Shown: positions 3,776-33,598 of the stretch, one piece after another
Position numbering within the stretch: position 1 is the first letter of the stretch
Layout of the letters: the number at the start of each line of letters is the position of its first letter
Made by a program: the position numbers and the translations under genes
Origin: a virus
Direction: 5' to 3' (one strand)
Virus record (IMG/VR): IMGVR_UViG_3300045988_112896
Location: 1-45,923 of that record
Length of the DNA stretch: 45,923 bases
The notes under the pieces: model-generated
Databases searched by the model: none
What the model saw: only the letters and a program-made list of their open reading frames with translations
What the model was told of the DNA's origin: nothing

Positions 3776-4170
3776 TCTTTCAGGGTAATTCCGAACTGCC
3801 TGATTTCAGACCAGTAAAGGCTTTTCCTGGTAAGCATGGCTCTCTCCATGTCTTCAAAGGAAATGAACCAAACTTCTCCGTTGGTCATTCTGAGGGCGAA
3901 CCACCCTTCTCCGTTGCCGGTCTGCCGCCAGAGGGTCATAGCGGAATACTGATTTTCCTCCACCCGTTCCAGACGGAAAATGTCTTTCTCACACACTTTG
4001 CAGTCAATCGGATAGGTATGACCGTTCTTAGCGGCAATCACATCGAAAGGCTGCCCCTGACTGTTCTGAGCAAGGTTGTGTGCCCAAAACCCATAACCGT
4101 AAAGGCTCAGGCACAATTCCTTTTCAAAACAGGTACCAATCTTACGGTTAGTGTTCGTCATGGAAATCAC
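3754..4170 (-). CDS. Holliday-junction resolvase (RecU/Hjc-like nuclease fold)
   Basis: 138-aa ORF. GTCFEKEL...GFWAHNL...PFDVIAAKNGHTYPIDCKV resembles the resolvase core (E...D...E/D-x-K). It sits next to the helicase in the replication module. Confidence 0.6.
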   Translation of the reverse strand: MISMTNTNRKIGTCFEKELCLSLYGYGFWAHNLAQNSQGQPFDVIAAKNGHTYPIDCKVCEKDIFRLERVEENQYSAMTLWRQTGNGEGWFALRMTNGEVWFISFEDMERAMLTRKSLYWSEIRQFGITLKEWVSKCG

Positions 4171-4396
4171 TCTCCAATTCTACAATTTTCTGCTTCAAAG
4201 AGAGGATTTCTGCTTTTAACTCATTGATGGTCTGACCTCGTTCTTCGGCAATTTCATCAGCGAGTTTTTCCATAGACCGGAAATACTTTACCGCTTCATA
4301 ACCCATGTATTTTTCCATGAGATATTCAAAATCTCGAACGGAAAACGGGGTTTCATTCTTGCCGTCCTTCAAGGTGAGAACCAGAGGATATTGCAT
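4148..4396 (-). CDS. Hypothetical protein (82 aa, coiled-coil C-terminus)
   Basis: ORF 4148..4480 trimmed to the internal ATG at 4396 (MQYPLVLTLKDG), which follows GGAAGGAGGAAG. The upstream part of the tracked ORF overlaps the DGR hairpin and VR2. Confidence 0.6.
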   Translation of the reverse strand: MQYPLVLTLKDGKNETPFSVRDFEYLMEKYMGYEAVKYFRSMEKLADEIAEERGQTINELKAEILSLKQKIVELESDFHDEH

Positions 4397-4412
4397 ACTT
4401 CCTCCTTCCTCA

Positions 4413-4430
4413 CCGCCCCTTCCGGGGCGG
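4413..4430 (-). promoter_or_regulatory. GC-rich hairpin 19 nt downstream of the VR2 stop codon (DGR target-recognition-type element)
   Basis: The printed strand reads ccgcccc-ttcc-ggggcgg: a 7-bp GC stem with a 4-nt loop. An almost identical hairpin lies at 13458..13477, downstream of VR1. Confidence 0.7.
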
Positions 4431-4449
4431 GATTGATACGGATTGTGGA

Positions 4450-5247
4450 TTAAACGCAGAAGCCGAAGGACACGCCACAACTGTGGGCGGCGCCGTAATA
4501 GTTGGCGTTGCCGTCACAGTTGACACCGCAGAAGTTGTCGGTGTCGCCGCTACGAGGAGAACGCTCCCACCGCAAATCCCGCTCACCGTTCTGCTTGCAC
4601 TTCCCGTACTCAGTGTTCTCCTGACGGTACCAGTCATACCACCGGCCCTCACCGCCCATGGAGTAAATCTTGCGTCCGAAAATCTCCTGCTCAGACAGGA
4701 TAAAGAGCTTGTCCACGGTTTCACCCATCTTGGGTTCCTTCCCGCCAGTTCCGGTCAGCTTGGAAGTGGGTTTGATGACGGCTTGCAGATCGGAAGGAAG
4801 GTCATTGAACACGGTATTGTTCAGCTTCTTGCGGAGAGCCGAATCCTTCCAGCCGCCCTTGTTGGTAAACTCGTCATTCATGGACATATCCTCGTTCAGC
4901 GTCTCCACGCACTCGAACGAAATGGGATTGATCTGGCCGTTGTTGCTGAAATCGTGATTGAAGCCGATGATACGCGCCGTCAGAACAGTGCCGTCATGCA
5001 GGAAGAAGCTCTTGGTGTCTCCCAGGTCAAACACCTTGTCAGCCATACCGGACTGAGCGTACATGGCAATCTCGGCCCAGGAACAATCTTCCAATTTCAG
5101 CTTGGGCAGATTGACCGCAGACTGGTCGAAACCGCAGGGACAAACGGTTTTCTGAGCAGTAGCCGCCTTGATGATCTGGCTCTGGAACGCAATGGTCTTT
5201 TCCATTTTTTCAAACTCAGCCGCAAGGCGAGAAATACACTCGTTCAT
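4450..5247 (-). CDS. DGR target protein 2 (remote target; C-terminal hypervariable lectin-like domain)
   Basis: The C-terminus WERSPRSGDTDNFCGVNCDGNANYYGAAHSCGVSFGFCV carries VR2. About 200 aa are homologous to target 1 (GDTK, IIGFNHD, GGW, DKLFxLSExEIFG). The chosen start is ATG 5247 (MNECISR), 6 nt after AAGGAG. The tracked ORF extends to 5466. Confidence 0.85.
   Translation of the reverse strand: MNECISRLAAEFEKMEKTIAFQSQIIKAATAQKTVCPCGFDQSAVNLPKLKLEDCSWAEIAMYAQSGMADKVFDLGDTKSFFLHDGTVLTARIIGFNHDFSNNGQINPISFECVETLNEDMSMNDEFTNKGGWKDSALRKKLNNTVFNDLPSDLQAVIKPTSKLTGTGGKEPKMGETVDKLFILSEQEIFGRKIYSMGGEGRWYDWYRQENTEYGKCKQNGERDLRWERSPRSGDTDNFCGVNCDGNANYYGAAHSCGVSFGFCV
4463..4571 (-). repeat. DGR variable repeat 2 (VR2)
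   Basis: My hand alignment of this 109 nt to TR 12851..12959 gives 16 mismatches. Every mismatch is at a printed-strand T of the TR, which is an A on the coding strand. Confidence 0.9.
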
Positions 5248-5260
5248 AAAAATCTCCTTT

Positions 5261-5524
5261 TCAATCATGGAAATGTTTGTTATAATCAGGTTGAGCTTTT
5301 GCGCTTGCCGTCTTTCGGTCTGCATACCGAGGACGGCTTTTTCTTTTATAGGGATAGGGGTCAAATGCGCCGGACAGCTTGCAAAACACATAGAAACAGG
5401 TAAGAGAAATGACCATATAGATCGTTCCCGTTCCAAGGGGAATAGTGTTCTGTTCAACGCCACCAACTACACCTAAGAGCCAGAAAAACGAGAAGAACGA
5501 TAGAACTCCAAAAACCTTTTTCAT
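5261..5524 (-). CDS. Small membrane protein (two predicted TM helices)
   Basis: 87-aa ORF MKKVFGVLSFFSFFWLLGVVGG...IYMVISLTCFYVFCKL with a basic C-terminus. It has an ATGA overlap with the upstream small ORF. Confidence 0.6.
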   Translation of the reverse strand: MKKVFGVLSFFSFFWLLGVVGGVEQNTIPLGTGTIYMVISLTCFYVFCKLSGAFDPYPYKRKSRPRYADRKTASAKAQPDYNKHFHD

Positions 5525-5682
5525 TCACTCACCTTCTTCCAGGCATATTGCTTGCCGTGTTTTTGCCGATACCAATTTTCAAACTCGGCTCGATGACTGC
5601 TGTCTTTGAAGTAGTCCCTGACTCTTTGAACCAACAACAGGCTTGCGGCTCTGGCCTGGGCTTGCTTTTCAGGTACGAACAC
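5521..5682 (-). CDS. Hypothetical small protein (about 53 aa; below the ORF-track cutoff)
   Basis: My own translation reads ...EKQAQARAASLLLVQRVRDYFKDSSHRAEFENWYRQKHGKQYAWKKVSE. It has a GTG start 6 nt after GGGAG, and its stop overlaps the next ATG (ATGA). Confidence 0.4.
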   Translation of the reverse strand: MFVPEKQAQARAASLLLVQRVRDYFKDSSHRAEFENWYRQKHGKQYAWKKVSE

Positions 5683-5684
5683 AC

Positions 5685-5984
5685 TCACGGCTCCCGGCAC
5701 AACCCCATGCGTTCCTGATACTCACGGAGAATGTCAAGGGAACGGCGCAGAATTTCATCGGCCTTACAACCGGTACGGACACAGGAGAGTGTTGCAGACA
5801 TTTCAAACTTGTCCGTGATAAGACCTTCATCGGACAACCGGCGAATGAGCCAGGTATAGGTCAAGCTCGAATCTACCACCATTTCTCTGATCTGTTCCGC
5901 ATACTTGGTTCTTTCCTGTTCCGTAAGCCGGACAACCGGAGCGTCAGGAGTCCAGTAGGGACGAGGGGTAGGGGTTCCCGCCAT
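5685..5984 (-). CDS. First early-operon protein (possible regulator), hypothetical
   Basis: 99-aa ORF preceded by AAAGGAGG. It is the first gene downstream of the strong leftward promoter. No motif was recognised with confidence. Confidence 0.6.
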   Translation of the reverse strand: MAGTPTPRPYWTPDAPVVRLTEQERTKYAEQIREMVVDSSLTYTWLIRRLSDEGLITDKFEMSATLSCVRTGCKADEILRRSLDILREYQERMGLCREP

Positions 5985-6188
5985 TAAAGCGACCTCCTTT
6001 CTCTAATTTACAACTAAAGTTAGAAATAATCCTTGCCTACTAAAATCGCTTATGCTATACTGAACTTGCCACAGGACAATAAGCATTAGAGATTTTCTTT
6101 TGACACAGGAGCCGGATTCCTTTTTGAAAAGAGGAATTTGACCCCTCGGATTAGTGTTGCCTGTTTTCTAACTTTCGTTGTTGTAATG

Positions 6189-6217
6189 AGTATATCTCAC
6201 CACAGTAAGATTGTCAA
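6189..6217 (-). promoter_or_regulatory. Leftward early promoter (sigma-70 type)
   Basis: The minus strand reads TTGACA (6217..6212), a 17-nt spacer, then TATACT (6194..6189). It faces the early operon and lies in the divergent region next to the repressor gene. Confidence 0.7.
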
Positions 6218-6256
6218 TAGGGAAATCTCACTTTAGTAAAATTTTTGGAGGTATTT

Positions 6257-6619
6257 ATGTTTTGGGAGAGATTTTCTGAGGAATGTTCTCTGAAAGGTGT
6301 AAAACCAAATCAAATAATCTCTGAAATTAAGGTTTCTTCTGGGACATTGACGAAATGGAAAAACGGAACCTTACCGAGTGCAGAAAATCTAATAACGCTT
6401 TCATCTTACTTTGGTGTAACTATTGATTATCTACTCGGATTATCTGAAAAAGTAACTCTCAAAGATCGCTTGTTTTCTCAATCCTCATTAAATGAACAAG
6501 AAACGGAGTTAGTTAATTTATTCCGTTCTTGTGAACCATCTGTGCAATTTCAGGTAATTCATATAATGATGACGGAAAAAGAAAAAACAGACTCTACGAA
6601 AAAGTCTGCTATCGGATAA
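6257..6619 (+). CDS. XRE-family HTH transcriptional regulator (CI-like repressor candidate)
   Basis: ISEIKVSSGTLTKWKNGTLPSAENLITLSSYFGVTIDYLLG is a typical XRE helix-turn-helix. ATG 6257 lies 7 nt after GGAGG. The gene is divergent from the early operon and upstream of the integrase. Confidence 0.8.
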   Translation: MFWERFSEECSLKGVKPNQIISEIKVSSGTLTKWKNGTLPSAENLITLSSYFGVTIDYLLGLSEKVTLKDRLFSQSSLNEQETELVNLFRSCEPSVQFQVIHIMMTEKEKTDSTKKSAIG

Positions 6620-6637
6620 AGTTATTGACCTGAGTGA

Positions 6638-8308
6638 GTGGAGAAAGACATTATGAAAAGCATGAAATTTCCGATTGACCTCTCTATGCTGACTGAAGAA
6701 GAAATAGACCAATTCCGACAAGACCCCAGCACTCTTTTTGAGGGGGATACCGATGTATCTCTATATCTTCGATTCAGCTCTGAAAGACAGCGTGAACAAT
6801 CCATTGAGGGCCAACTTCGGGACTGCCGTTCCTTCTGTAAAGTAAACCGATACCGCATAGCTGCCATCTATGTTGACCGGGCCACAACCGCCAGGAAAGA
6901 TGTAGAGAAGCGTATTCACTTCCAAGAAATGATACGGGACAGCGAGAAGAAACCTTGGAAGTATGTTATAGTGTGGAAGTTAGACCGATTTGCCAGGAAC
7001 CGAACAGACAGTGCCTTATTCAAATTCCGACTCAGGAAAAATGGTGTTCGTGTAATCTCAGCCACAGAAGCTATCTCCGAAAAGCCGGAAGGTATCATTC
7101 TTGAAGCTGTTCTGGAAGGTATGGCTGAATTCTATTCCGCTGACCTCTCACAAAAGATCACCAGGGGAATGAGAGAATCTGCCTTGAAGTGTCACAGCAT
7201 TGGTGGTCATGTTCCTCTCGGCTACAAGATTGAGGATCACAAGCTCGTTGTTGACCCGAACACAGCTCATATCGTACAGGAAGCCTTTCAGCTATATGCC
7301 AACGGAGAGACTGTTGCTGAAATATGCCGTATGTTCAATACCAAAGGTTACCGGACAGCCAAAGGTGCTGAATTCAACCGGAACAGTTTCAAGTCCATGT
7401 TCCGCAACGAAAGGTACATTGGGGTTTACACCTACCGTGATATTCGCATTGAGGGCGGGGTTCCGGCCATCATTGACAAGGAATTATTTGAAACGGTATC
7501 TCATAGGCTCTCAGTCAACGCAGAAGCCCCGGCAAGGGGTAAGGCTAAGGTAGATTACCTCTTAGCCGGAAAGCTCTTCTGCGGCCATTGTGGAGGGTCT
7601 ATGAACGGGGAAAGCGGAACCAGCAAAACCAGAGCCATTCATAACTATTACACCTGTTACTCTCGGAAGCGTCATCATTCCTGCGACAAGCGTCCTTTGA
7701 AGAAAGAATGGATAGAACGGATTGTTGCACAAGACGCAATGGAACTCATGACCGATGAAGTCATTGAAGAGCTGGCTGATATGGCTATGGCTCAGACAGA
7801 TCAGGACTTGAAAGAGAATACCCGTATCCCGGAACTGACTGAGCGGAAGAAAGAAATAGAGAGCGGAATTGCCAACATCACAAAGGCCATCGAAAAAGGC
7901 ATTGCTTCTGACTCTTTAATGGAGCGGCTTGTAGAGCTGGAAAAAGACAAAAAGAAAATCCTCCGTCTATTGGAGGAAGAAGAAAAGTATGTGTGCCGGA
8001 TTGACCGGGAACAAATCATATTCTGGCTTGAGAAGTTCAAGGGTGGTAACCTGGAAGATGAAGGGTTTAGAAGAATTATCATTGACCTCATAGTGAACTC
8101 TGTCACGGTCTGGGACGAGCCTGACGGCTTTCGTATCACTACCGCATACAATTTGACCTCTTGTAAAAACAAGACATACCGGGTTTCCCCTTCTTCCGGG
8201 AAGGGGTTCGGATTTGAGGGGTCAGAGTCCACCATTGAGCGCAAATCCGAACCCTACATTGTTTGGGGTACGGTATTTGTGCAAACGAAAAGACACACCT
8301 TACCATAA
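6638..8308 (+). CDS. int: Large serine recombinase (phage integrase)
   Basis: The N-terminal resolvase domain reads YLRFSSERQREQSIEGQ...WKLDRFARN. It is followed by a recombinase domain, a Cys-rich zinc ribbon (CGHCGG...CYSRKRHHSC) and a coiled coil. The start may be ATG 6653. Confidence 0.9.
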   Translation: MEKDIMKSMKFPIDLSMLTEEEIDQFRQDPSTLFEGDTDVSLYLRFSSERQREQSIEGQLRDCRSFCKVNRYRIAAIYVDRATTARKDVEKRIHFQEMIRDSEKKPWKYVIVWKLDRFARNRTDSALFKFRLRKNGVRVISATEAISEKPEGIILEAVLEGMAEFYSADLSQKITRGMRESALKCHSIGGHVPLGYKIEDHKLVVDPNTAHIVQEAFQLYANGETVAEICRMFNTKGYRTAKGAEFNRNSFKSMFRNERYIGVYTYRDIRIEGGVPAIIDKELFETVSHRLSVNAEAPARGKAKVDYLLAGKLFCGHCGGSMNGESGTSKTRAIHNYYTCYSRKRHHSCDKRPLKKEWIERIVAQDAMELMTDEVIEELADMAMAQTDQDLKENTRIPELTERKKEIESGIANITKAIEKGIASDSLMERLVELEKDKKKILRLLEEEEKYVCRIDREQIIFWLEKFKGGNLEDEGFRRIIIDLIVNSVTVWDEPDGFRITTAYNLTSCKNKTYRVSPSSGKGFGFEGSESTIERKSEPYIVWGTVFVQTKRHTLP

Positions 8309-8329
8309 TCGGTAGGGTGTGTCTCTTTT
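8288..8329. terminator. Imperfect 17-bp inverted repeat between convergent genes (bidirectional terminator; also an attP candidate)
   Basis: aaaagacacaccttacc-ataatc-ggtagggtgtgtctctttt, with an A run on one side and a T run on the other. It overlaps the integrase stop codon. Confidence 0.6.
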
Positions 8330-8517
8330 CAATCTTCTCCGATGAACCCATTAGCCTTAGCACACTTCAAGGCTTGAAGAACCAGGCTATGCCGTTTTAA
8401 CTCTTTCTCATAAACGGCCCTGGGTACACCTTCTGAAATTGGGGAAGCGGTTAAAACTCTCTTTCGATCTCTCACTACCTTCCCCTCATAGTAAGAGATA
8501 ACATCGTCAATGTTCAT
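8329..8517 (-). CDS. Hypothetical protein (62 aa)
   Basis: ORF track only. It is the last gene of the minus-strand transcription circle. Confidence 0.4.
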   Translation of the reverse strand: MNIDDVISYYEGKVVRDRKRVLTASPISEGVPRAVYEKELKRHSLVLQALKCAKANGFIGED

Positions 8518-8876
8518 ATCGCAGGACTCTCCAAAGAACCTTCCGGTTCCTGTTTGGGCGTAAACTGATTAGCTTTTGCGGCTGCGTACTTAATTCCTTC
8601 CCCGTCAGCACTGGTATTCTCAGCTCGGCTCTTATCCACAATGCGGACAAGCACAATGGATATGGCGGTTCCGATAGGAGTAAAAACTACCGTCCAGCAA
8701 GCCAGGGCACCGGTGTACTGATATTTGATGCTCAGGACGGCCAGAAGAAATCCTCCGACCAGTCCTATGAGTAACAGGAATACCAGTAAAACAGCCAGAC
8801 AGTTAGTAAAGCCGAGCCGTTCCAGCAAGACAAGAAAGCGGCTTTTTGTAGGAGCCACCCTCTTGCCGGTTCCCAT
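8514..8876 (-). CDS. Membrane protein downstream of the endolysin (2-3 TM helices)
   Basis: 120-aa ORF with hydrophobic stretches LAVLLVFLLLIGLVGGFLLAVL and ACWTVVFTPIGTAISIVLV. Its start overlaps the amidase stop. Confidence 0.55.
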   Translation of the reverse strand: MGTGKRVAPTKSRFLVLLERLGFTNCLAVLLVFLLLIGLVGGFLLAVLSIKYQYTGALACWTVVFTPIGTAISIVLVRIVDKSRAENTSADGEGIKYAAAKANQFTPKQEPEGSLESPAI

Positions 8877-9670
8877 CAGGCCAGACCGTGTTTCTGGGCA
8901 AAGCGATAGAACAGCATAGCCGCCTGTTCACGGGTCAGGGAGTCGGCCCACATCATGTTAGGCTGACCGTCCACGGTAGTACCGTTACCGGCAAACAAAC
9001 CGACCTGGATTGCCCACTCACGAGCCTTGGCACTCCACTCACCGCAATCGTTGTCCTGGAGACTCTTGCGGTACTCAGCCATAGCGACATTGAACTTCTC
9101 ATTGAACTCGGTCTGAGTCATCTCTTCCTCTTCCTTTCCGCTCAGGCGTTTATTAACCTCTTCGGCAATCTGGCCGTGATGCTCATAAAGCCAGTTACCG
9201 GGACAGGCTTTGGCCGCAAACCAACGGTGAACTGTCATGTTCTGCTGGTCTACCTGTCCAATCAGATTCCTGTTGCCCTTCCAAAGCAATTTCTTGATAC
9301 CGTTGCGCTGGCAAATATCCACCAGCAAGTCAATGAGGGACTTGTATGCGGCATCACTGATAGGCCAGGGGTCAGCCGCTACGGTATTGGCAACCTCGAT
9401 GGTGACAGCTCTCTGGTCATTCGCCTTGGACGAAGTACACCAGCTCCGATTGCTCTCATTCACATAGAGAGCGATACGGCCATCACTGCCAATGCCGTAA
9501 TTGCTGGACGCTTTCCGGTCACTGTTAGCAAACAGGGCACCGCAGGTTTCGACAGACAGATTTCCCGCCATGCAATGAACAGAGATGGTGTCAATCACAT
9601 GGGTACGCTGACCAGAGTGGTTCGGACTCAGTTTGGTGTAAGACACCAAGGGACTATTAGTCATCTTCAT
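8876..9670 (-). CDS. Endolysin: N-acetylmuramoyl-L-alanine amidase (Amidase_2/PGRP type) with C-terminal binding domain
   Basis: ISVHCMAG...SSNYGIGSDGRIALYV...AVTIEVAN...HRWFAAKACPG is the amidase_2 pattern. The start is taken at ATG 9670 or 9664 (MKMTNSPLV), after AAGGGGGA. Confidence 0.85.
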   Translation of the reverse strand: MKMTNSPLVSYTKLSPNHSGQRTHVIDTISVHCMAGNLSVETCGALFANSDRKASSNYGIGSDGRIALYVNESNRSWCTSSKANDQRAVTIEVANTVAADPWPISDAAYKSLIDLLVDICQRNGIKKLLWKGNRNLIGQVDQQNMTVHRWFAAKACPGNWLYEHHGQIAEEVNKRLSGKEEEEMTQTEFNEKFNVAMAEYRKSLQDNDCGEWSAKAREWAIQVGLFAGNGTTVDGQPNMMWADSLTREQAAMLFYRFAQKHGLA

Positions 9671-9839
9671 CGTCCCCCTTACCGTCACCGCCGCAGAACC
9701 CGGCCAGAGTGTCTTCGTCCACCACATCTCCGTCCTCGTCATAGATATGGCCGGTTTCCGTGTCTACATTCAGAACGCCCTTGTAAGGCAGATCATCGTC
9801 AATCTCATGGTTGTAGTAGCGGTAGTTCAGATTACTCAT
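9657..9839 (-). CDS. Small acidic protein (60 aa), hypothetical
   Basis: Tracked ORF 9657..9896 trimmed to MSNLNYRYY. It lies between the holin and the endolysin. Confidence 0.45.
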   Translation of the reverse strand: MSNLNYRYYNHEIDDDLPYKGVLNVDTETGHIYDEDGDVVDEDTLAGFCGGDGKGDDEDD

Positions 9840-10128
9840 TCTTCTCACCCCATCCCATAATCTCACGCAGCTTATCAAACCCAAACATTGCGGCATACGC
9901 TACCATAAACCCGATGACCACAAAGGACACCACGATATACCAGGTGACAGCCACGGCGTTAATCTGGCAGTAGGCAAAACCAGCCGCCAGGGTGAGGGCC
10001 ACGGCCACGATCAGGGCGAGAATGTTGGTTGGCAGCTTGTCCCAGGTGGCTTTCTTCGTAACCTCGACAATTACATTGGTCAGGGCCACAAGAAAGCCGA
10101 TGATGGTAATGATGACAGACATATCCAT
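9832..10128 (-). CDS. Holin (three TM helices)
   Basis: 98-aa ORF with three hydrophobic helices and a charged C-terminus, located just upstream of the endolysin. A strong RBS (AGAAAGGAGAA) is supplied by dyad element copy A. Confidence 0.75.
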   Translation of the reverse strand: MDMSVIITIIGFLVALTNVIVEVTKKATWDKLPTNILALIVAVALTLAAGFAYCQINAVAVTWYIVVSFVVIGFMVAYAAMFGFDKLREIMGWGEKNE

Positions 10129-10133
10129 GGTAT

Positions 10134-10263
10134 TTCTCCTTTCTCATTTTGGTGACTTTGGTGAATGATTTTCGATTTTTACCATAAACTCTCTTATAGG
10201 ACGCTATTTAAGGAGGGTTTTATGCAAAATCAAGAAATGAGTCACCAAATACACCAGAAGCAC
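10134..10263 (-). promoter_or_regulatory. Dyad element, copy A (5' leader or upstream region of the holin gene)
   Basis: About 130 nt, homologous to 34176..34300. Arms 10150..10174 and 10234..10256 are inverted copies of TGGTG-nn-TTTGGTGA-n-T-n-ATTT. The centre contains a conserved CTATAAGAG. Confidence 0.7.
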
Positions 10264-10292
10264 AAAATATTATTTGTGGGAACTTAATATTT

Positions 10293-10742
10293 TTAGTTGT
10301 CCTGTTCGTTGGAAGAAGAGCTGAGAAAGTCATGTTTTTGCAGACGATCATCATAACTCCGACTGATATTGGCTATGGCGTGAACGGCACGATTGTTTTT
10401 GTAATCCTTGTGTTCACGACAATAGCGTTCGTAAAAGTCAATGTCAGCCAGAACATTAATGAACTCTTCCTTTGTGTGGGAAATATCCCGCAACAATTCG
10501 TTGTTGAACCTAAGAATACGGGCACGGTGTTCATCTGCGTTTCTCGCTTCATTGGCTTTCACATGGTCAGCCAAATCTTTCTTCACAGTTTCCAATTCTT
10601 TCAGAACATCAGAGTTAATGGCTCTCCCGATAGCCTTTGCGATTGCAGACCAGGGGTTGACCTTAATAGGGGCGATTTGGATAAGGGTCAGCAGAAACAG
10701 GAGCGTACCACCCCCATAACTTAAAATCTCTTGGATACCCAT
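10293..10742 (-). CDS. Membrane-anchored protein, hypothetical
   Basis: 149-aa ORF with an N-terminal TM helix (GGGTLLFLLTLIQIAPI) followed by a helical domain. Confidence 0.5.
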   Translation of the reverse strand: MGIQEILSYGGGTLLFLLTLIQIAPIKVNPWSAIAKAIGRAINSDVLKELETVKKDLADHVKANEARNADEHRARILRFNNELLRDISHTKEEFINVLADIDFYERYCREHKDYKNNRAVHAIANISRSYDDRLQKHDFLSSSSNEQDN

Positions 10743-10771
10743 GCTTCCTCCATTGGTGTCAGATTTTGAAC

Positions 10772-11437
10772 TTACTCAACCTTTTCCCAGCCATCGGGAT
10801 ATGCGTCAGGACTCCAAACATTCCCGTCAACCAAGGAGCGATACAGGGTACCATTGTAGTTCACAATGTCCCCGGTATTGTACGCATCGTGTACCCCGGA
10901 CGGTTGACTCCAAACGGGATAGCCGCTGTCATCAAGGCCGAAAGCGTCATACAGACTCTCACTGTTAGGGCCGGGTTTCCAGTTGTCCTGAGAGGTATGA
11001 GCCTGTACCACCTTGTAAAGCTGCGGGTCACCAACGGAATTCGTACCGTAGGAGAAAATATCGCCCACGGCATAGGTGTGGTCAGGTTCCCACACGGGAT
11101 ACACCGTAGAAACCTCCATGGCCTGTTCCTCAGACAGACTCCCGGCAAACATCTGGACAACCTTCCTGAACTGTTCCGCATTTTTCAGATTGTCAATGTC
11201 GGTCAGCAGAGCAATCAGATTGTCGGCATAAATGCCGTCATCTACCTGGGTAACGGATACGGTTTCCACGCCCTCAAGATCAGGAAGCCCCTCCACATGG
11301 TAGACAGTCCCATCTACCACAATGCCCTGAGCGTTCTCGATGTCACTCAGGCCGTAGGACTCATTCTCCTGCATCTTCACCCATACCGGACTGCCGATAG
11401 TGGCAAACAGGGTACCGCCTTTATAAATCTTATACAT
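10772..11437 (-). CDS. Tail-associated carbohydrate-binding protein (two CBM5/12-like repeats)
   Basis: YAVGDIFSYG...LYKVVQAHTSQDNWKPG and YNTGDIVNYNGTLYRSLVDGNVWSPDAYPDGWEKV fit the aromatic-rich CBM5/12 pattern. ATG 11437 overlaps the RT stop codon. Confidence 0.6.
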   Translation of the reverse strand: MYKIYKGGTLFATIGSPVWVKMQENESYGLSDIENAQGIVVDGTVYHVEGLPDLEGVETVSVTQVDDGIYADNLIALLTDIDNLKNAEQFRKVVQMFAGSLSEEQAMEVSTVYPVWEPDHTYAVGDIFSYGTNSVGDPQLYKVVQAHTSQDNWKPGPNSESLYDAFGLDDSGYPVWSQPSGVHDAYNTGDIVNYNGTLYRSLVDGNVWSPDAYPDGWEKVE

Positions 11438-12581
11438 TGCATTCCCAGCCTTTCTTATTTGGATAGAACCCAAACAGGGATTTCACATATTGATTGGTCT
11501 GTTCTCTCACCTTGAAGCTGTTTCCTCGCTTCATGTGGCCGTGGTAGCTGTCTACGGAACATCGAATATCTGCCAGGGTCATTTCCCCTCTTTTCCACTT
11601 TCCCTGAAAAGAACGAAGTTTCTTGCGAATCAGTTTGGTGGAAGCCGGGTTCATTTTCAAAACCACTTTGCCATTTGAAGTGATGATGAACTTGGTCTTG
11701 AGCCATCGGAAGTAATCAGCCAGGGGAATGACCCTCGTTTTCTTCCAGTTCAGGCGTAATCCTAAACGGTCACACATCATTTCCAAGCCGAATATACATT
11801 CTGTTTTCAGATAATCAATATCCTCGTGAATGGCGTACCCATCGTCCATGTACCGGGCATAACCCTTAATACCGAGATTTTCTTTGAAGTAGTGGTCAAG
11901 AGGACTTGGAAGCAGGAGCGCATTGGTCTGAGAAATCTGACTGCCAAGCCCTAAACCAACAGGGCCAAAATCGGAAATGAAACTGTTGTGAAGCTCCCGG
12001 ACACGATCATCATGGAGCCGTCTTTTCGATTCTCTCAACAGGGGAGCATGAGGTGCTTCATCGAAGAAACTCTTGAAATCGTAGACCAGGATTCCACCTG
12101 TCAGGCCATGTTTCCGAAAATGCCTTTTCAAGTGCCGCACCAGTCTCCTGAGTGCGAAATCCATTCCACGATGTTTCAGGCTTGCCGAGTTGTCATAGAT
12201 GAATGAGGACGAATAGATAGGTACAATGCAGTAATCGCATAGACATTTCTGAACCGCTCTTTCCGAGATATGGACGGAACGAATGTGTCGTTTCTTGCCA
12301 CGCTCCATGATGTAGAACTCATGGAAGCCACGGTGTTTGAAGGTTCCGGTCTGCAATGCTTTCCAGGTGGCGGCAATGTTGGGAATAAGGTTTCCTATAT
12401 ACCGCTGAGTCGAATTCTTCCAATACACACCCTTGCAGCATTTCTTACCGGAAAGGTATAAATGCCGGAACGAAAAGACTTCATCGAAATCCCCACAAGA
12501 TAGGCTCTTTTTCTTTCGGGCCTCGTCCCGCTTCGCCTTTCTGCGTTGATAGCGGATTTCTCTCCGTTCTTCACTTGTCAT
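11430..12581 (-). CDS. DGR reverse transcriptase
   Basis: 383-aa ORF with a YMDD catalytic box (ARYMDDGYAI) and LGLGSQISQTNALLL, the SQ-containing motif typical of DGR RTs. It lies adjacent to the TR. Confidence 0.9.
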   Translation of the reverse strand: MTSEERREIRYQRRKAKRDEARKKKSLSCGDFDEVFSFRHLYLSGKKCCKGVYWKNSTQRYIGNLIPNIAATWKALQTGTFKHRGFHEFYIMERGKKRHIRSVHISERAVQKCLCDYCIVPIYSSSFIYDNSASLKHRGMDFALRRLVRHLKRHFRKHGLTGGILVYDFKSFFDEAPHAPLLRESKRRLHDDRVRELHNSFISDFGPVGLGLGSQISQTNALLLPSPLDHYFKENLGIKGYARYMDDGYAIHEDIDYLKTECIFGLEMMCDRLGLRLNWKKTRVIPLADYFRWLKTKFIITSNGKVVLKMNPASTKLIRKKLRSFQGKWKRGEMTLADIRCSVDSYHGHMKRGNSFKVREQTNQYVKSLFGFYPNKKGWECNV

Positions 12582-12850
12582 AAAAAGGGGTTCCCTCCGT
12601 ACAGTATTTTGTAGGATACGGGTTGTAACTGCTTAGTAATAACAGCCATGAAATGAGTTACCGTATATCACTCACCATGCAAGCAGCGTCCGGCTGATTA
12701 CATCGGAAGCTCCCGTTACCGGAAGGGGCATATTTCATCGATATGCCCGGATGTTTTAGCCATTTGGCAGGGTACAAGCCCTCCCTCTGCAAAAGGTTCT
12801 GATTTCGCCCAATGGGGTTACTACGACTGACCTATACGAAGTTGCAGAGT
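12582..12850 (-). ncRNA. DGR spacer RNA region between TR and RT
   Basis: 269 nt with no credible ORF. It contains a perfect 8-bp hairpin, gggcatat-ttcatcg-atatgccc (12726..12748). In characterised DGRs the TR-proximal spacer is part of the structured template RNA that primes cDNA synthesis. Confidence 0.55.
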
Positions 12851-12974
12851 CCGAAGGACACGCCATTACTGTTGTTGGCGTTGTTATTGTTGGCGTTGCC
12901 GTCACTGTTGACATTGCAGAAGTTGTTGGTGTTGCCGCTATTAGGAGAACGCTCCCACCAGTTGTTCGCAGAAC
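12851..12974 (-). repeat. DGR template repeat (TR)
   Basis: 124 nt that read on the minus strand as AAC/AAT-rich codons (SANNWWERSPNSGNTNNFCNVNSDGNANNNNANNSNGVSFG). It matches VR1 and VR2 except at its adenines. It has about 38 adenines by hand count. Confidence 0.9.
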
Positions 12975-13012
12975 AATAGCAACTAAACAGGACTTGACCC
13001 AATATCAAAAAC

Positions 13013-13441
13013 TTACTCCGGCAGATTTTTATATCTGTCGTTATCAGCTTTCTTCACCTTGGAAATGAGCTGCGCTTCCTCTTTGATAAGATTTCCAAAC
13101 TCCAACATAGCATGGTCAATCCACGGACACTTTTCAGGATTTTGGAGAATACTGTCATAGAGTAAAGTCAGCTTGGGACTTAGGTTTTGGAGGGCAATGT
13201 TCGCTTTCGTCAGACAATCCCGGCGCATCTGAGCTTCGTGCTTGTTCTTGGGATAGATGTTGTTGGCCGCTCTCACTTCATCGTGAACGGTGGAAGCAAG
13301 GTGCATGATCTTGTAAAGAAGATACGGGCCGTAGCGTTTCGGAGCCTTGGTGACTACTGAAAAGGCATGAACTTCCAGCTTTCGAGCGGTTTCAACAAAC
13401 TGCATAGCACTTTCGCCACGCATGGCCTTGATGACAGACAT
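13013..13441 (-). CDS. avd: Accessory variability determinant (Avd-like four-helix-bundle protein)
   Basis: 142-aa basic helical ORF between the target gene and the TR, which is the canonical Avd position and size. Confidence 0.75.
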   Translation of the reverse strand: MSVIKAMRGESAMQFVETARKLEVHAFSVVTKAPKRYGPYLLYKIMHLASTVHDEVRAANNIYPKNKHEAQMRRDCLTKANIALQNLSPKLTLLYDSILQNPEKCPWIDHAMLEFGNLIKEEAQLISKVKKADNDRYKNLPE

Positions 13442-13457
13442 AAGTGTTACCCTCCTA

Positions 13458-13477
13458 CCCGCCCCTTCCGGGGCGGG
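13458..13477 (-). promoter_or_regulatory. GC-rich hairpin 18 nt downstream of the VR1 stop codon
   Basis: The printed strand reads cccgcccc-ttcc-ggggcggg: an 8-bp GC stem with a 4-nt loop. Its twin is at 4413..4430. Confidence 0.7.
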
Positions 13478-13495
13478 ATTTTTGAAGATGATGGA

Positions 13496-14626
13496 TTAAA
13501 CGCAGAAGCCGAAGGACACGCCACGACTGCCGTTGGCGATGCTACTGGCGGCGTTGCCGTCACTGGTGACACTGCAGAAGGTGCTGGCGTTGCCGCTATA
13601 AGGAGAACGCTCCCACCAGTAGTTCGCAGAACCATTGACCTTCTTGATTCTGGAATTACCGGCCTTGTACCACTCATACTGATTGCCCTCTCCGGAAACA
13701 GAGTAGGTGGTAGTACCGAAAATCTCGATCTCGGACAGCAGAAACAGCTTGTCAGAGGTGGTCTGCGTTCCACTGGAAGAACCGTTGCCGGTACCGGACT
13801 TCTTGTTTACCGACTTGATGACAGATTGCAGAGCGGACGGGAGCTGACTCAGGTAGGTACTCATTCTGCTTCTCATGGCAGAACCGTTCCAACCGCCAAC
13901 ATTGGTATTGCTGCTGTTCATCTGAGCGGTAGCGTTCAGACAGTCAACCATCTGGAAGGTAATACCGGCCTTGCCACCAGAAGTCAGATCATCATGGTTG
14001 AACCCGATAATCTGAACCTGATAATTGACCCCTCCGATGTTGACGGTCTTAGTGTCACCGACCTTGAAGAACTGCTGAGCCATACCCAACTGAGAACAGA
14101 TACCAATGTCGGCCCACTCAGTATCTTCCAGATCATCTCCGATTTCAAAGGGATAGACCGTTACGATACCGATAACTTCGAGGGTATAGGTTCTGGTCTT
14201 CTGCTGACTGTTGAAGGTGTAAGTCAACTGCCAGTCACCCAGGACGGTAGGATAAAGAACCGCTTCTCCCCCAGAAACCCTTGCGCTGAGAACTTTACCG
14301 TCCTTGCTCATGGTAACCGTGGTACCGTTGTCCGCAATGACATGAACCTCAGCGGGAGAACCCTTCTGGCTCAGTGCGTACAGAGCGTCATTCACGGTGG
14401 GGTCAGACTGACTCAGTTCCAGGGCCGTCTTCGTGGTGTCGGACAGAAGATTGGCTTTGTTCTGGGGAGTGCCGACCACGGTACACCCAGCGGGGTTCAG
14501 GGAAATGTCCATGGTGGCCGTACCAGCTAAGAGCTGAGAACGCCATTCCTCATAGCTCTCAGGCATGGTGGTTGGGGCTTTCAATGTACGGGAAGTACCG
14601 TCCCCCTTGATAATGGTGTCTTTCAT
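13496..14626 (-). CDS. DGR target protein 1 (tail fibre or receptor-binding protein with C-terminal hypervariable domain)
   Basis: 376-aa ORF ending WWERSPYSGNASTFCSVTSDGNAASSIANGSRGVSFGFCV (VR1). It lies directly downstream of the tail and baseplate genes. Confidence 0.85.
   Translation of the reverse strand: MKDTIIKGDGTSRTLKAPTTMPESYEEWRSQLLAGTATMDISLNPAGCTVVGTPQNKANLLSDTTKTALELSQSDPTVNDALYALSQKGSPAEVHVIADNGTTVTMSKDGKVLSARVSGGEAVLYPTVLGDWQLTYTFNSQQKTRTYTLEVIGIVTVYPFEIGDDLEDTEWADIGICSQLGMAQQFFKVGDTKTVNIGGVNYQVQIIGFNHDDLTSGGKAGITFQMVDCLNATAQMNSSNTNVGGWNGSAMRSRMSTYLSQLPSALQSVIKSVNKKSGTGNGSSSGTQTTSDKLFLLSEIEIFGTTTYSVSGEGNQYEWYKAGNSRIKKVNGSANYWWERSPYSGNASTFCSVTSDGNAASSIANGSRGVSFGFCV
13509..13632 (-). 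repeat. DGR variable repeat 1 (VR1)
   Basis: My hand alignment of this 124 nt to TR 12851..12974 gives 16 mismatches, all at TR adenines (coding strand). Confidence 0.9.
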
Positions 14627-14637
14627 GTTATCCTCCT

Positions 14638-15228
14638 TTATTCACCGCTGTTATAGAGATTGGCGTAATAGAACGCTGCCACGGTGCGGTCGATTTTGGA
14701 GTAAAGCTCCGTTTCCACCTCGGTCAGTGTCTTGTCAATCACAAACAGCAGATATTCCATGTCATTTGCGACAGAGAATGTCAGTCCGTCTAAGGTGGGC
14801 GGGACTGCTGGCGCATCTGCCGGAAGCGAGAGCTGCTGACGCAGAATGACCAGATCATTGAGATAGGCCGTTGCGAGGGATTGTGTCGGGGTATCTCCCA
14901 TGGCCCAATTTGTCTTAGCGGAAACAACCACAGAGGAAGGGTTATAAGGCACATGATAAATAGGGTCATCTGCAACTCCTTTCTCAGCCCGGTAAGCGTC
15001 AAGCTCATTGGGGATAGAAGTCATGCGGTTCGCAATATAGGCAACCACCTGTCCTACACGGTTCATGTCGGTGTAGTTATAGGCACCCTTCATTCCGGCC
15101 ATGTATTCAGCCTTTTCCTCGGCGGTGAGGGCATCAAGCCCTCCCGTGAGGATTTTGTTCTTCAAGGTGAAAACCCTGTCAACATCGGCCTGAGTGCGGT
15201 CATAGACCAAAGTATCAATGACGCTCAT
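14638..15228 (-). CDS. Tail/baseplate-associated protein, hypothetical
   Basis: 196-aa ORF in the distal tail module. Its start overlaps the stop of the upstream gene. Confidence 0.5.
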   Translation of the reverse strand: MSVIDTLVYDRTQADVDRVFTLKNKILTGGLDALTAEEKAEYMAGMKGAYNYTDMNRVGQVVAYIANRMTSIPNELDAYRAEKGVADDPIYHVPYNPSSVVVSAKTNWAMGDTPTQSLATAYLNDLVILRQQLSLPADAPAVPPTLDGLTFSVANDMEYLLFVIDKTLTEVETELYSKIDRTVAAFYYANLYNSGE

Positions 15229-30339: not shown

Positions 30340-30924
30340 TTATCCAGCCCTTCTCACTAATTCATACCAAGTGGTTCTGCCAATACCCAACTCCCTGCAA
30401 CAGTCAGCAACGGTCATCTCGCCCTTCTTTTGCTTCTCTCGGCAACTCTCAAAGGCACTCTGATCTACAACAATAGGTTTCCGGCCCTCACGCCAATTAG
30501 GGTCATGCTCACGCTTGTAGGCTTTTCCGTCAGAAGTACGCTCTACAATCATGTCACGCTCATATTCAGCAAAGGCCAGCATGACGGTCACCATGACTTT
30601 ACCCATCGGGCTATTGTCAGCAATACCCATGTTCAGGATATGCACCGTGATACCTCGGTCAACCAAATCCCGTACCAGCAAGGCACCTTCCGGGGCAGTT
30701 CGGGCAAACCTGTCCAGCTTGCAAACCACCATTTCGTCACCGGCTTTCAACTTGGAAAGAAGGTCATCAAATCCAGGTCGTTCCATGGTGTGTCCAGTAT
30801 AGGTGTCAAGGTAGATGTTCTCACGCTGAACACCAGCCGCTATCAAACGGTCAACCTGATCTTCAAGAGACATTCCATAGAGCTTTTGCCCACGGGAGCT
30901 GACTCGACCATAGCCGTATCTCAT
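30340..30924 (-). CDS. Small serine recombinase (resolvase/invertase family)
   Basis: MRYGYGRVSSRGQ carries the catalytic Ser. Other family features are VVCKLDRFARTA, the E-helix region and a C-terminal HTH (CRELGIGRTTWYELV). The ORF is 194 aa. Confidence 0.9.
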   Translation of the reverse strand: MRYGYGRVSSRGQKLYGMSLEDQVDRLIAAGVQRENIYLDTYTGHTMERPGFDDLLSKLKAGDEMVVCKLDRFARTAPEGALLVRDLVDRGITVHILNMGIADNSPMGKVMVTVMLAFAEYERDMIVERTSDGKAYKREHDPNWREGRKPIVVDQSAFESCREKQKKGEMTVADCCRELGIGRTTWYELVRRAG

Positions 30925-33321: not shown

Positions 33322-33493
33322 CCCCTTTTCACAAAATATTTTCAGTGCTTTTTCTGCCTATATAATGTATCCGAAAACTCAAAAGAAAATGAACGGCAAC
33401 GGCAGAAGACCAACCAACCCACCGGGAGCCAGCCGTGCCAGAACCGGCACCCGTTTACACCCTGGGGCCAGCCGGTCACCTTACCCGGCATGG

Positions 33494-33527
33494 AAAAAAG
33501 CCGCCGACCTCCTGAAAGATCGGCAGC
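33494..33527 (-). terminator. Intrinsic terminator downstream of terS
   Basis: The minus RNA folds as GCUGCCGA-loop-UCGGCGGC followed by UUUUUU. Confidence 0.7.
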
Positions 33528-33530
33528 TCG

Positions 33531-33598
33531 TCATAGTCGATAGTCGTTAAGGTTGGCGGCAAAGTCGATAGTCGCTAGGGTCATAGTCGATAGTCGCT
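33531..33598. repeat. Three direct repeats of AGTCGATAGTCG just downstream of terS
   Basis: The printed-strand string agtcgatagtcg occurs at 33535..33546, 33563..33574 and 33585..33596. A partial copy, tcatagtcgctagc, lies at 33611..33624 inside the terS 3' end. Confidence 0.8.

Follow-up and report, generated by a model that had tools for sequence, protein, structure and literature searches.

Phage DGRs in which one TR serves both an adjacent and a remote VR are already in the literature. Wu et al. (2018; PMC5758913) described many phage-associated DGRs that pair an adjacent target with a non-adjacent one inside a single prophage, and targets whose 5′ mutagenesis boundaries differ, and a 2025 study in Nature (PMC12629997) found distal second VRs of gut prophages near methyltransferases. 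These systems belong to the same general class as the locus analysed here, and are described there at survey level. In Roseburia phage Shimadzu (LR596903; Cornuault et al., 10.1101/575076), a myovirus with a Lachnospiraceae host, VR1 lies in a tail gene beside Avd-TR-RT, and VR2 lies at a distance of about 14 kb, at the 3′ end of orf43; the product of orf43 is a small DUF6273-like protein (209 aa) whose function is unknown. About 2% of the reads from virions showed mutations at both VRs (10.1101/575076), the experimental support consisting of this read variation. The Shimadzu VR2 differs from its TR at 15 positions, all of them A, its homology begins 17 nt later than that of VR1, and we mapped orf43 between a DNA methyltransferase and Erf/SSB genes. 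The Faecalibacterium myoviruses Lelie, Toutatis and CP11 also have two VRs for one TR, with a large target downstream of the RT that carries an internal VR. "Large and small" DUF6273 targets have been reported for Lelie and CP11, and both CP11 VRs are hypervariable across cognate genomes (PMC11792537). The small DUF6273 protein of Lelie and Toutatis is encoded far from the cassette (16–17.5 kb). In Toutatisvirus it is a core protein of unknown function, encoded 17.5 kb from the TR (10.1101/2024.10.15.618418). The Lelie small target (215 aa; phrog_9958) is encoded between methyltransferase and peptidase genes on one side and regulator and replication initiator genes on the other; it has no coiled coil, and its VR lies about 117 nt before the stop codon. 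In nd4 and nd12, a small DUF6273 target (tgt2) is encoded inside the DGR cassette, beside tail genes, and is partnered by a tentaclin whose VR is N-terminal (PMC10743442). Tentaclins consist of an N-terminal C-lec domain that bears the VR, followed by between one and four Ig-like domains plus a C-terminal anchor motif (Baykov et al., 2023; PMC10743442).

Two further systems serve as points of comparison. The DGR of Bordetella phage BPP-1 (Mtd, Avd, TR, bRT) diversifies a single adjacent target by adenine-specific mutagenic retrohoming from an AAY-rich TR; it has distinct IMH and IMH* elements, a GC hairpin with an 8-bp stem and a 4-nt loop a short way past the VR, and Avd encoded between target and TR. 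Mtd-like tropism determinants combine N-terminal beta-prism and beta-sandwich attachment domains with a CLec domain, and sit as trimers on tail fibres. The DGRs of Treponema denticola and Legionella use one TR to serve several VRs in trans regardless of distance, but are cellular, act over distances that can reach >100 kb, and diversify surface lipoproteins that carry export signals.

We analysed a stretch of viral DNA of 45,923 nucleotides (IMG/VR record IMGVR_UViG_3300045988_112896; hereafter the window), which represents one circular 45.8-kb genome, that of a gut prophage, with a 99-nt terminal repeat. The window contains a DGR cassette in the order target 1 - Avd - TR - RT:

11430–12581, minus strand: DGR reverse transcriptase, 383 aa (PF00078, E 9e-9; phrog_1423, E 8e-72).
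12582–12837, minus strand: TR-RT spacer, with strong conservation among relatives in its TR-proximal ~70 nt.
12838–12850, minus strand: IMH*-type 3′ end of the TR, ACTCTGCAACTTC, unlike the VR ends.
12851–12974, minus strand: TR (template repeat), with adenines all at codon positions 1–2 of the target frame.
13013–13441, minus strand: Avd-like accessory protein, 142 aa (phrog_30516, E 9e-14; phrog_3206, "Avd protein of DGR", E 1e-4).
13458–13477, minus strand: GC hairpin 3′ of VR1, 8-bp stem and GGAA loop (DNA fold −11.9 kcal/mol, z −3.8).
13496–14626, minus strand: target 1 gene, 376 aa (PF19789, E 5e-21; phrog_10993, "Hoc-like").
13509–13632, minus strand: VR1, 124 nt.

The RT has the sequence LGLGSQISQTN at aa 209–220 and YMDD at aa 244, in line with the [ILV]GxxxSQ and YxDD motifs of DGR-clade RTs. 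The Avd-like ORF occupies the canonical position between target 1 and TR, as in BPP-1; its assignment has only moderate support because it has no Pfam match. The conserved TR-proximal part of the spacer (GTATAGGTCAGTCGTAGTAACCCC... across loci) may, by the BPP-1 model, be the priming region of the DGR RNA. In the target frame the TR contains ten AAC and four AAT codons. Target 1 is encoded by the last gene of the tail module, with genes for the tape measure and tail proteins as its neighbours, and consists of an N-terminal region, an Ig-like stretch and a DUF6273 domain; its Ig-like stretch is N-terminal to the lectin domain, unlike in tentaclins.

A second sequence related to the TR lies in a gene outside this cassette, which we refer to as target 2:

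4413–4430, minus strand: GC hairpin 3′ of VR2, 7-bp stem and GGAA loop (DNA fold −11.6 kcal/mol, z −2.7).
4450–4476, minus strand: IMH-like 3′ end of VR2, consisting of an A-free GGCGTGTCCTTCGG common to the TR and then a VR-specific CTTCTGCGTTTAA that includes the stop codon.
4450–5247, minus strand: target 2 gene, 265 aa; AAGGAG lies 7 nt upstream of its ATG.
4463–4571, minus strand: VR2, 109 nt homologous to TR 12851–12959.
5261–5524, minus strand: gene for an 87-aa protein with two TM segments by hydropathy, immediately upstream of target 2 and syntenic in relatives.
6189–6217, minus strand: candidate early promoter (TTGACA-17-TATACT, 11/12), divergent from the repressor gene, from a consensus scan only.
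6245–8308, plus strand: lysogeny module, with an HTH repressor (6245–6619) and a large serine integrase (6638–8308).

The original prediction was that one TR serves two VRs, and that VR2 differs from it at 16 positions, all TR adenines. An in-register comparison on the coding strand gave the same count: all 16 mismatches fell on TR adenines (9 A>G, 4 A>T and 3 A>C), of which the matched 109-nt stretch contains 34 (hypergeometric P = 3.7e-10). VR1 likewise differed from the TR at 16 positions, 16/16 of them TR adenines (P about 4e-10). The A-site patterns of the two VRs were unlike each other, as had been proposed, and the TR homology of VR2 indeed began 15 nt later than that of VR1 on the 5′ side. 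A repeat search over positions 4000–15000 returned exactly three copies, namely TR, VR1 and VR2, and one RT was present among the ORFs scanned. VR2 is thus a non-adjacent, A-to-N-only match to the TR of the same phage genome.

The 3′ ends of the repeats also agreed with the prediction that both VRs end in the same non-TR sequence followed by the same hairpin. VR1 and VR2 both terminate in GGCTTCTGCGTTTAA(stop), for which the TR counterpart is GGACTCTGCAACTTC; the IMH-like and IMH*-type elements accordingly differ in sequence (CTTCTGCGTTTAA in both VRs, ACTCTGCAACTTC in the TR). The VR-type end was kept after every VR2 in 31 loci. The hairpin, CCGCCCC-GGAA-GGGGCGG, lies 16–21 nt past the stop codon of both targets, and all relatives retain it after VR2, including those in which another gene lies downstream. 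One relative (L009) has a single compensatory pair change in the stem (CCGCTCC/GGAGCGG), and the loop is of the GNAA type, consistent with the hairpin/cruciform of DGRs such as that of BPP-1. We considered whether the VR2 hairpin is an intrinsic terminator and rejected this, because it has no T-run, is followed immediately by the next gene's ribosome-binding site, and was not called in the scan for terminators. The shared 3′ element and hairpin support the earlier suggestion that both VRs are competent for homing.

The prediction placed VR2 in the early/replication region rather than the structural module, and the gene context bears this out. Target 2 is the fourth gene of an early operon divergent from the repressor gene, upstream of genes for resolvase, helicase and methylase; the genes downstream of it function in replication and recombination, and it lies upstream of the terminase gene by ~21 kb of co-directional genes. 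A scan for minus-strand terminators and promoters between the candidate promoter and target 2 found none. Based on gene order and this one consensus promoter match, we infer that target 2 is probably expressed early; its position resembles that of the accessory genes of the lambda PL region. Its upstream neighbours had been described as small membrane proteins, which fits the 87-aa protein with its two TM segments but not the 99-aa and 59-aa products, which are soluble by hydropathy. The prophage edge is just past the 3′ end of the integrase gene: many related contigs stop 50–110 nt beyond the integrase, and L033 and L034 contain host flank that gives the prophage borders. The stated spacing of about 8 kb holds only for the circular form (8.3 kb), and not for the integrated prophage, where VR2 and TR are ~37 kb apart, near opposite ends.

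The relatives include 30 IMG/VR contigs with full-length target 2 orthologues and invariant synteny (int <- rep <- | -> p99-p59-p87-T2-(p82)-resolvase-helicase). The same slot is occupied in one Oscillospiraceae prophage (Oscillospiraceae bacterium CM18GR_63), the only prophage from the genome contig scan, which is enough to place the host family and the prophage borders but not host range. Orthologues at 42–49% identity occupy the same slot, which is held across 42% to 97% identity. Megablast of 25 kb against INPHARED returned only three short unannotated gut-virome fragments, and hence no named close relative, and a tblastn search of phages with target 2 as query yielded distant matches at <=41% identity (Pioen, Taranis, Roos and Shimadzu), with no orthologue among them. 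When each VR2 was compared with its own TR, the mismatches (total/at A, by locus) were 16/16, 20/19, 17/16, 22/21, 22/21, 24/18 and 5/5, and the A-site pattern differed in every locus compared. Across 30 VR2 copies, entropy was 1.39 bits at TR-A sites and 0.21 bits at non-A sites. Two contigs (L001 and L002) have TRs that are 100% identical and VRs that are different. Among 18 near-identical metagenome proteins, aa 1–231 were almost invariant and hypervariability was confined to the AAY-encoded residues 232–257; one of these proteins (P0001) matches the window protein over aa 1–224 and differs from it at 15 VR residues. In total we found 245 target 2 homologues, all about 265–277 aa long with PF19789 only, and their 90%-identity clusters contain up to 7308 distinct member sequences. 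The original prediction would have been refuted by a VR2 without variation next to a variable VR1, and the hypervariability of VR2 at A-encoded positions across relatives clearly speaks against this.

Taken together, the absence of non-A mismatches in the window and the variation among relatives indicate that VR2 is very probably an active second DGR target. A single phage DGR would then diversify two paralogous genes for DUF6273 lectin-like proteins, the second of them non-adjacent. By analogy with BPP-1, RT and Avd would reverse-transcribe an RNA comprising TR and spacer, with random bases inserted opposite template adenines, and the cDNA would act in trans to replace DNA that bears the VR-type 3′ element (GGCGTGTCCTTCGG plus CTTCTGCGTTTAA) followed by the GC hairpin. 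The end of homology would set the 5′ junction, which we propose as the reason that VR2 is 15 nt shorter than VR1, and a diffusible cDNA would make the distance between VR2 and cassette irrelevant in either the circular or the prophage form. These cDNA steps and the RT-dependent transfer from TR to VR are what we infer from that model.

One alternative sees in VR2 a dead relic, a 3′ piece of target 1 that was duplicated and still resembles the TR but is no longer homed into. The lack of read-level variation at either VR in a culture of Lelie (PMC11792537) would fit such a view. However, VR2 has accumulated no non-A mismatch in 109 nt, it retains an intact, conserved 3′ element and hairpin, the A-site pattern relative to the TR of the same locus is different in each relative, proteins that are otherwise nearly identical vary in the VR alone, and homologue clusters contain thousands of distinct members; we regard the relic reading as effectively refuted, with a vanishingly small residual chance. 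A second alternative, which we consider highly improbable, is that recombination or gene conversion among the three direct repeats, rather than retrohoming, maintains the similarity of VR1, VR2 and TR. About 27 nt at the 3′ side are indeed identical among the repeats, which also have the hairpin in common, and VR1 and VR2 within one genome have the same base at 34/54 co-mutated A sites. In addition, target 2 is fused directly to avd-TR-RT in one contig (L020), as would be expected of a recombinant or of a chimeric assembly; we rejected it as an alternative arrangement and treated it as a chimera or a recombinant through the shared VR ends, because the contig is only 6.9 kb long and just 22 of its 33 mismatches are at A. 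Gene conversion would nevertheless neither restrict differences to TR adenines nor yield a unique A-site pattern in each genome, and it accounts poorly for the many A sites at which VR1 and VR2 of the window differ, and for a TR that is identical between genomes whose VRs are not.

The product of target 2 is predicted to be soluble, with a coiled coil, one lectin-like domain and a last stretch of ~26 residues that is randomised. The domain is DUF6273 (PF19789, E 4e-14), and VR2 codes for the ~35 C-terminal residues. The homology of about 200 aa to target 1 noted previously was confirmed (47% identity over 215 aa, E 4e-55). The stated lack of a signal peptide agrees with a hydropathy scan, which found no hydrophobic N-terminus, TM segment, signal peptide or lipobox. 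The AF2 model has a helix at aa 3–31, a confident core at 50–225 and low confidence for VR residues 228–265 (pLDDT <50). Hydrophobic residues occupy 82% of the heptad a/d positions of the helix, which is modelled as a 4-heptad coiled coil. Based on the DUF6273 match, the domain is putatively C-type-lectin-like, and a C-lec fold has been assigned to DUF6273 (PMC10743442; 10.1101/2024.10.15.618418). A Foldseek comparison of the model with PDB structures had no match below E 0.7, a profile search of the PDB sequences yielded no meaningful match, with no similarity to Mtd or TvpA, and the BFVD fold matches were other DUF6273 proteins, among them long tail-fibre-like proteins. With its single 30-residue N-terminal helix, target 2 lacks the Mtd-like architecture, and with a single domain, a C-terminal VR and no Ig domain it is not a tentaclin.

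Set beside the published systems, the layout found here is confirmatory. The original prediction regarded a diversified early protein as functionally unexplained, which still holds, but the implied novelty does not stand, since the layout has already been published. Like Shimadzu, the window has one TR, a VR1 in a tail gene beside Avd-TR-RT and a remote VR2 at the 3′ end of a gene for a small DUF6273-like protein; unlike Shimadzu, it is of siphovirus type, target 2 has only 26% identity to orf43 over the domain, orf43 has no N-terminal coiled coil, and orf43 lies deeper in the replication module whereas target 2 is fourth after the early promoter. The Lelie, Toutatis and CP11 genomes differ in the placement and internal VR of the large target, and the nd4/nd12 tgt2 in its location inside the cassette. 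In the papers cited here we found no description of a siphovirus-type lineage with a serine integrase and an Oscillospiraceae host.

As to what target 2 does, we lean, on inference, towards a free, probably oligomeric, hypervariable binder that would be produced early in the lytic cycle, stay out of the tail and act on a variable host or competitor molecule, in counter-defence, host takeover or exclusion; we hold this reading tentatively, since it falls somewhat short of an even chance. The lack of a TM segment or signal peptide supports it, as do the remote targets of Shimadzu and Lelie, which are bare DUF6273 proteins with no N-terminal extension encoded among methylase, Erf, SSB and replication genes; distal VRs have also been found near counter-defence genes (PMC12629997). 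Somewhat less probable, although a serious contender, is that target 2 belongs to the virion, as an accessory receptor-binding protein or adhesin, and is merely encoded outside the late module; the coiled coil would then trimerise the protein and dock it on tail or head, giving each particle two independently variable specificities. To our knowledge, all experimentally characterised phage DGR targets to date are receptor-binding virion proteins. The identity of target 2 to target 1 across the whole lectin domain points the same way, as do the BFVD matches to DUF6273 domains within long tail-fibre-like proteins, and the heptad helix at aa 3–31 might serve as a stalk for virion attachment or trimerisation. 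The authors who described the small DUF6273 targets guessed at a receptor-binding role, both for the nd4/nd12 tgt2 beside tail genes (PMC10743442) and for the Toutatisvirus small target (10.1101/2024.10.15.618418). On the other hand, target 2 is the fourth gene of an early operon, far upstream of the terminase gene, in a slot held over a wide range of identity; its Shimadzu and Lelie counterparts lack an anchoring extension, and the target 2 N-terminus (aa 1–52) matched other window proteins only at noise level, with no shared virion-docking motif. That target 2 is something else than these two is unlikely.

A soluble decoy or blocker is improbable. Such a protein, released at lysis or exported non-classically, would coat receptors or debris and so protect progeny or exclude competitors, much as T5 Llp masks its receptor. 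Early synthesis, if correctly inferred, solubility and a multivalent coiled-coil lectin layout would suit it, as would the 2-TM protein encoded immediately upstream. Yet target 2 shows no signal peptide or lipobox, the membrane-protein neighbour is absent in Shimadzu, and VR1 and VR2 diversify independently, so that the two targets would seldom share a ligand. Broadening the free-binder reading to the small early-operon DUF6273 proteins as a group (target 2, Shimadzu orf43 and the Lelie/Toutatis small target) gives a more doubtful proposal: these would be non-virion, DGR-diversified, intracellular or lysis-released binders, produced as the lytic cycle begins, that recognise variable molecules of host or rival phage, for example to neutralise defence proteins. 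If true, this would amount to an antibody-like counter-defence arm that shares one template with a receptor-binding protein.

With VR2 as a live DGR target, the lineage of the window would be the third or fourth independent phage lineage to have a bare DUF6273 protein encoded among early/replication genes, and in those lineages a single template supplies the hypermutation of both the small protein and the tail-module target. Its recurrence in siphovirus-type and myovirus genomes, with Oscillospiraceae, Faecalibacterium and Roseburia hosts, argues that the early placement is functional rather than accidental. The number of homologues, and clusters of thousands of variants, make this lineage a good system for finding the ligands. 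If the small targets are non-virion binders, the biology of phage DGRs would reach past host-range switching.

We compared the variable repeats (VRs) and the template repeat (TR) in register on the minus (coding) strand. Over 109 nt, VR2 (4463-4571), in target 2, and the TR (12851-12959) disagree at 16 positions, every one a TR adenine (A>G 9, A>T 4, A>C 3); given 34 TR adenines in this stretch, the probability that 16 random mismatches all hit A is 3.7e-10. VR1 (13509-13632, 124 nt), in target 1, also has 16/16 mismatches at A, in a pattern unlike that of VR2. A repeat finder recovered exactly three copies: VR2, VR1 and the TR. Both VRs end in GGCTTCTGCGTTTAA, where the TR has GGACTCTGCAACTTC, and both are followed, 16-21 nt further on, by the hairpin CCGCCCC-GGAA-GGGGCGG, with stems of 7 bp (VR2) and 8 bp (VR1) and DNA folding energies of -11.6 and -11.9 kcal/mol, respectively. 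TR homology starts 15 nt later in VR2 than in VR1. The original prediction, a second target of the diversity-generating retroelement (DGR) served by the same TR, is thus confirmed with respect to the adenine-only mismatches and their distinct pattern, the common VR-type 3' end and GC hairpin, and the shorter 5' homology of VR2. In the shared reading frame, every TR adenine falls at the first or second codon position (AAC x10, AAT x4), as in a classic DGR template.

At TR adenines that are altered in both VR1 and VR2 of a genome, the two repeats have the identical base in 34 of 54 cases, against a naive expectation of ~0.4 (pairs from the window, 4463-4571 vs 13509-13617, and from related loci L003, L019, L021 and L026). 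This agreement probably reflects shared scaffold constraints or a site-specific A>G bias.

A scan of IMG/VR for target 2 found 30 contigs with full-length orthologues (61-97% identity). All 30 share one gene order: repressor and integrase in one direction and, divergently, p99-p59-p87-target 2-(p82)-resolvase-helicase, where p99, p59, p87 and p82 are small ORF products named by length in amino acids. Target 2 is therefore conserved at its locus, a check that had been proposed, and its slot is unchanged in orthologues of 42-49% identity. For related loci that include their own TR, VR2 differs from it at 20, 17, 22, 22, 24 and 5 positions, of which 19, 16, 21, 21, 18 and 5 are at A, and no two A-site patterns are alike. 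Sites with an invariant TR adenine have an entropy of 1.39 bits across the 30 VR2 copies, invariant non-A sites 0.21 bits. The 245 target 2 homologues (~265-277 aa) have DUF6273 as their sole Pfam domain, and the 90%-identity clusters to which they belong contain as many as 7308 distinct sequences. Aligning 18 near-identical members shows almost no change over residues 1-231 and hypervariability over residues 232-257, exactly at AAY-templated positions; one database protein is identical to the window's target 2 over residues 1-224, yet 15 VR residues differ. Each VR2 is followed by the VR-type 3' element and the hairpin, also in relatives with a different downstream gene, and in one lineage the stem has changed in a compensatory way (CCGCTCC/GGAGCGG). 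The invariance that, according to the original prediction, would mark VR2 as a relic is clearly contradicted by this conserved position, the almost exclusively A-site differences, the entropy, the protein variation and the retained cis elements; judged from these sequences, VR2 is alive.

Several relatives depart from this arrangement. In L028 (2643-2800 of IMGVR_UViG_3300045988_077424) the "TR" has 21 adenines vs 32-35 elsewhere and a VR-type 3' end, GGCTTCTGCGACTTC. It has 6 mismatches to its VR2 (5 at A) and 19 to its VR1 (6 at A). Changes extend into the 15 nt common only to VR1, so conversion from VR2 cannot explain them; this looks like natural self-mutagenesis, with the TR as its own homing target, and then re-homing into VR2. 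The TR of L020 (4433-4590), with a partly VR-type 3' end (GGCTTCTGCAACTTC, 2/3 IMH-type changes) and its adenines kept, may be an intermediate towards that state. On the same 6.9-kb contig, target 2 is fused straight to avd-TR-RT via the common VR end, and contigs L002 and L019 end inside or just past VR2. All three are breaks or chimeras produced by assembly at the repeat, which is to be expected of a hypervariable sequence in three copies; some room is left for a true recombinant between the direct repeats. The closest relative, L001, whose TR is 100% identical to that of the window, has a 60-nt in-frame deletion inside VR2 (10677-10738; gene of 738 nt vs 798 nt), which could have arisen by aberrant homing or template switching, or by the assembler collapsing a mixed population. 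Some database proteins called DUF6273-Hjc fusions (P0077 and P0105, 385-429 aa) are probably read-through or mis-called genes over the short target 2/p82/resolvase interval in relatives lacking p82.

A perfect 99-nt direct terminal repeat (1-99 and 45825-45923) closes the window into a circular assembly of 45,824 bp. The minus strand holds almost all genes, arranged as follows.

6217-6189, minus: strong promoter-like site (TTGACA-17-TATACT), divergent from the repressor gene
6245-6619: HTH repressor, divergent from the promoter-like site
6638-8308: large serine integrase, beside the repressor
Between promoter-like site and target 2: three small ORFs (99, 59 and 87 aa)
5261-5524, minus: the 87-aa ORF, a membrane protein with two TM helices and a basic tail, directly upstream of target 2
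4450-5247, minus: target 2, then an 82-aa ORF
Next: Holliday-junction resolvase, SF2 helicase, C5 methylase
Past the circular junction: DNA polymerase, methylase/Erf-like ORF, RecE-like exonuclease, primases
Then: terminase, portal, tape measure, tail proteins
Last: target 1, Avd, TR, RT, CBM5/12 protein, lysis genes

Based on this order, target 2 is the fourth gene of the early operon, with the terminase ~21 kb downstream and co-directional genes between; its placement in the early/replication region, outside the structural module, is borne out. The small membrane proteins said to adjoin it reduce to one, the 87-aa product; the 99- and 59-aa ORFs do not encode membrane proteins. The 87-aa gene is syntenic in nearly all relatives, and may be functionally paired with target 2. 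The DGR motifs LGLGSQ and YMDD are both present in the RT, and a 142-aa ORF matches PHROG Avd families. The 233-aa CBM5/12 protein (10772-11473, minus), encoded directly downstream of the RT with an overlap of 44 nt at the RT end, has two carbohydrate-binding repeats and may be a lysis-module cell-wall-binding accessory or a further adhesin. A 404-aa ORF (43736-44950, minus) matches a DNA methyltransferase family over residues 1-180 and Erf-like annealing proteins over 147-400, and is either a fusion or a mis-joined gene pair. Besides the integrase there is a second, small invertase-like serine recombinase (194 aa; 30340-30924, minus) just upstream of the terminase region.

Many related contigs end 50-110 nt past the integrase, and host genes abut it in L033 (an Oscillospiraceae genome) and L034 (a metagenomic contig). 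In L012 (5500-6600), a second serine-recombinase-like gene lies in tandem just outside the integrase, and could reflect tandem elements or a neighbouring element integrated at the same site. Once integrated, the prophage has target 2 ~3 kb from one of its ends and the DGR cassette near the other; the predicted separation of about 8 kb holds only for the circular form, and in the prophage the distance is ~37 kb. Following the BPP-1 paradigm, RT/Avd would reverse-copy the TR-spacer RNA into adenine-mutagenised cDNA that would replace VR1 or VR2, each independently. The cDNA would be diffusible and act in trans, with the 3' element, hairpin and 5' homology as its only guides, and the ~37 kb separation fits this.

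The lectin-like domains of the two targets share 47% identity, upholding their predicted homology, and a C-type-lectin fold has been assigned to DUF6273 (PMC10743442; 10.1101/2024.10.15.618418). In line with the predicted lack of a signal peptide, a hydropathy scan of target 2 showed neither a hydrophobic N-terminus nor a TM segment. Its AF2 model (mean pLDDT 73) has a long helix at residues 3-31, a confident core at 50-225 and a low-confidence VR; the helix has a clean heptad register (a/d positions 82% hydrophobic), and in the model this suggests oligomerisation. Foldseek and profile searches of the PDB with target 2 gave no matches, and BFVD matches were other phage DUF6273 proteins, some inside long fibre-like proteins.

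Our tentative preference is for target 2 as a free binder outside the tail, made early and probably oligomeric, because its early slot is kept over wide divergence, it has no recognisable virion-docking domain, and its equivalents in phages Shimadzu and Lelie consist of the bare domain and lack even the helix. Moreover, lambdoid phages have accessory genes in the corresponding region (ral, gam, sieB, kil) whose products target host or rival functions. A virion-attached accessory adhesin is the main rival, a lesser but real possibility; in its favour are the paralogy of the two targets, the DUF6273 relatives that are fibre-like, and the coiled coil of target 2.

The original prediction is right on mechanism and location; the novelty it implied for a second remote target is overstated. 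Many phage-associated DGRs have one adjacent and one non-adjacent target per prophage, with 5' mutagenesis boundaries that vary between targets (Wu et al., 2018; PMC5758913). In Roseburia phage Shimadzu we mapped the TR (19582-19710), VR1 in tail fibre orf22, and VR2 (33483-33593) in orf43, flanked by methyltransferase and Erf/SSB; this VR2 has 15/15 mismatches at A and homology starting 17 nt later than in its VR1. Unlike target 2, orf43 has no two-TM neighbour. Both Shimadzu VRs were mutated in 2% of virion reads (10.1101/575076). In Faecalibacterium phage Lelie, the 215-aa orf58 carries VR2; it lies 16 kb from the TR, surrounded by methylase, regulator and replication genes. For Lelie/CP11, "large and small" DUF6273 targets are described (PMC11792537), and according to the iLund4u preprint the small target of Toutatisvirus is a core gene lying 17,480 nt away from the TR (10.1101/2024.10.15.618418). 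We found no close relative of the window phage in INPHARED; with its siphovirus-type genome, serine integrase and Oscillospiraceae host, this element adds a new lineage to a known layout. The second-target finding is confirmatory, and this lineage, with thousands of sampled variants, would lend itself well to work on the function of early-region DUF6273 targets.
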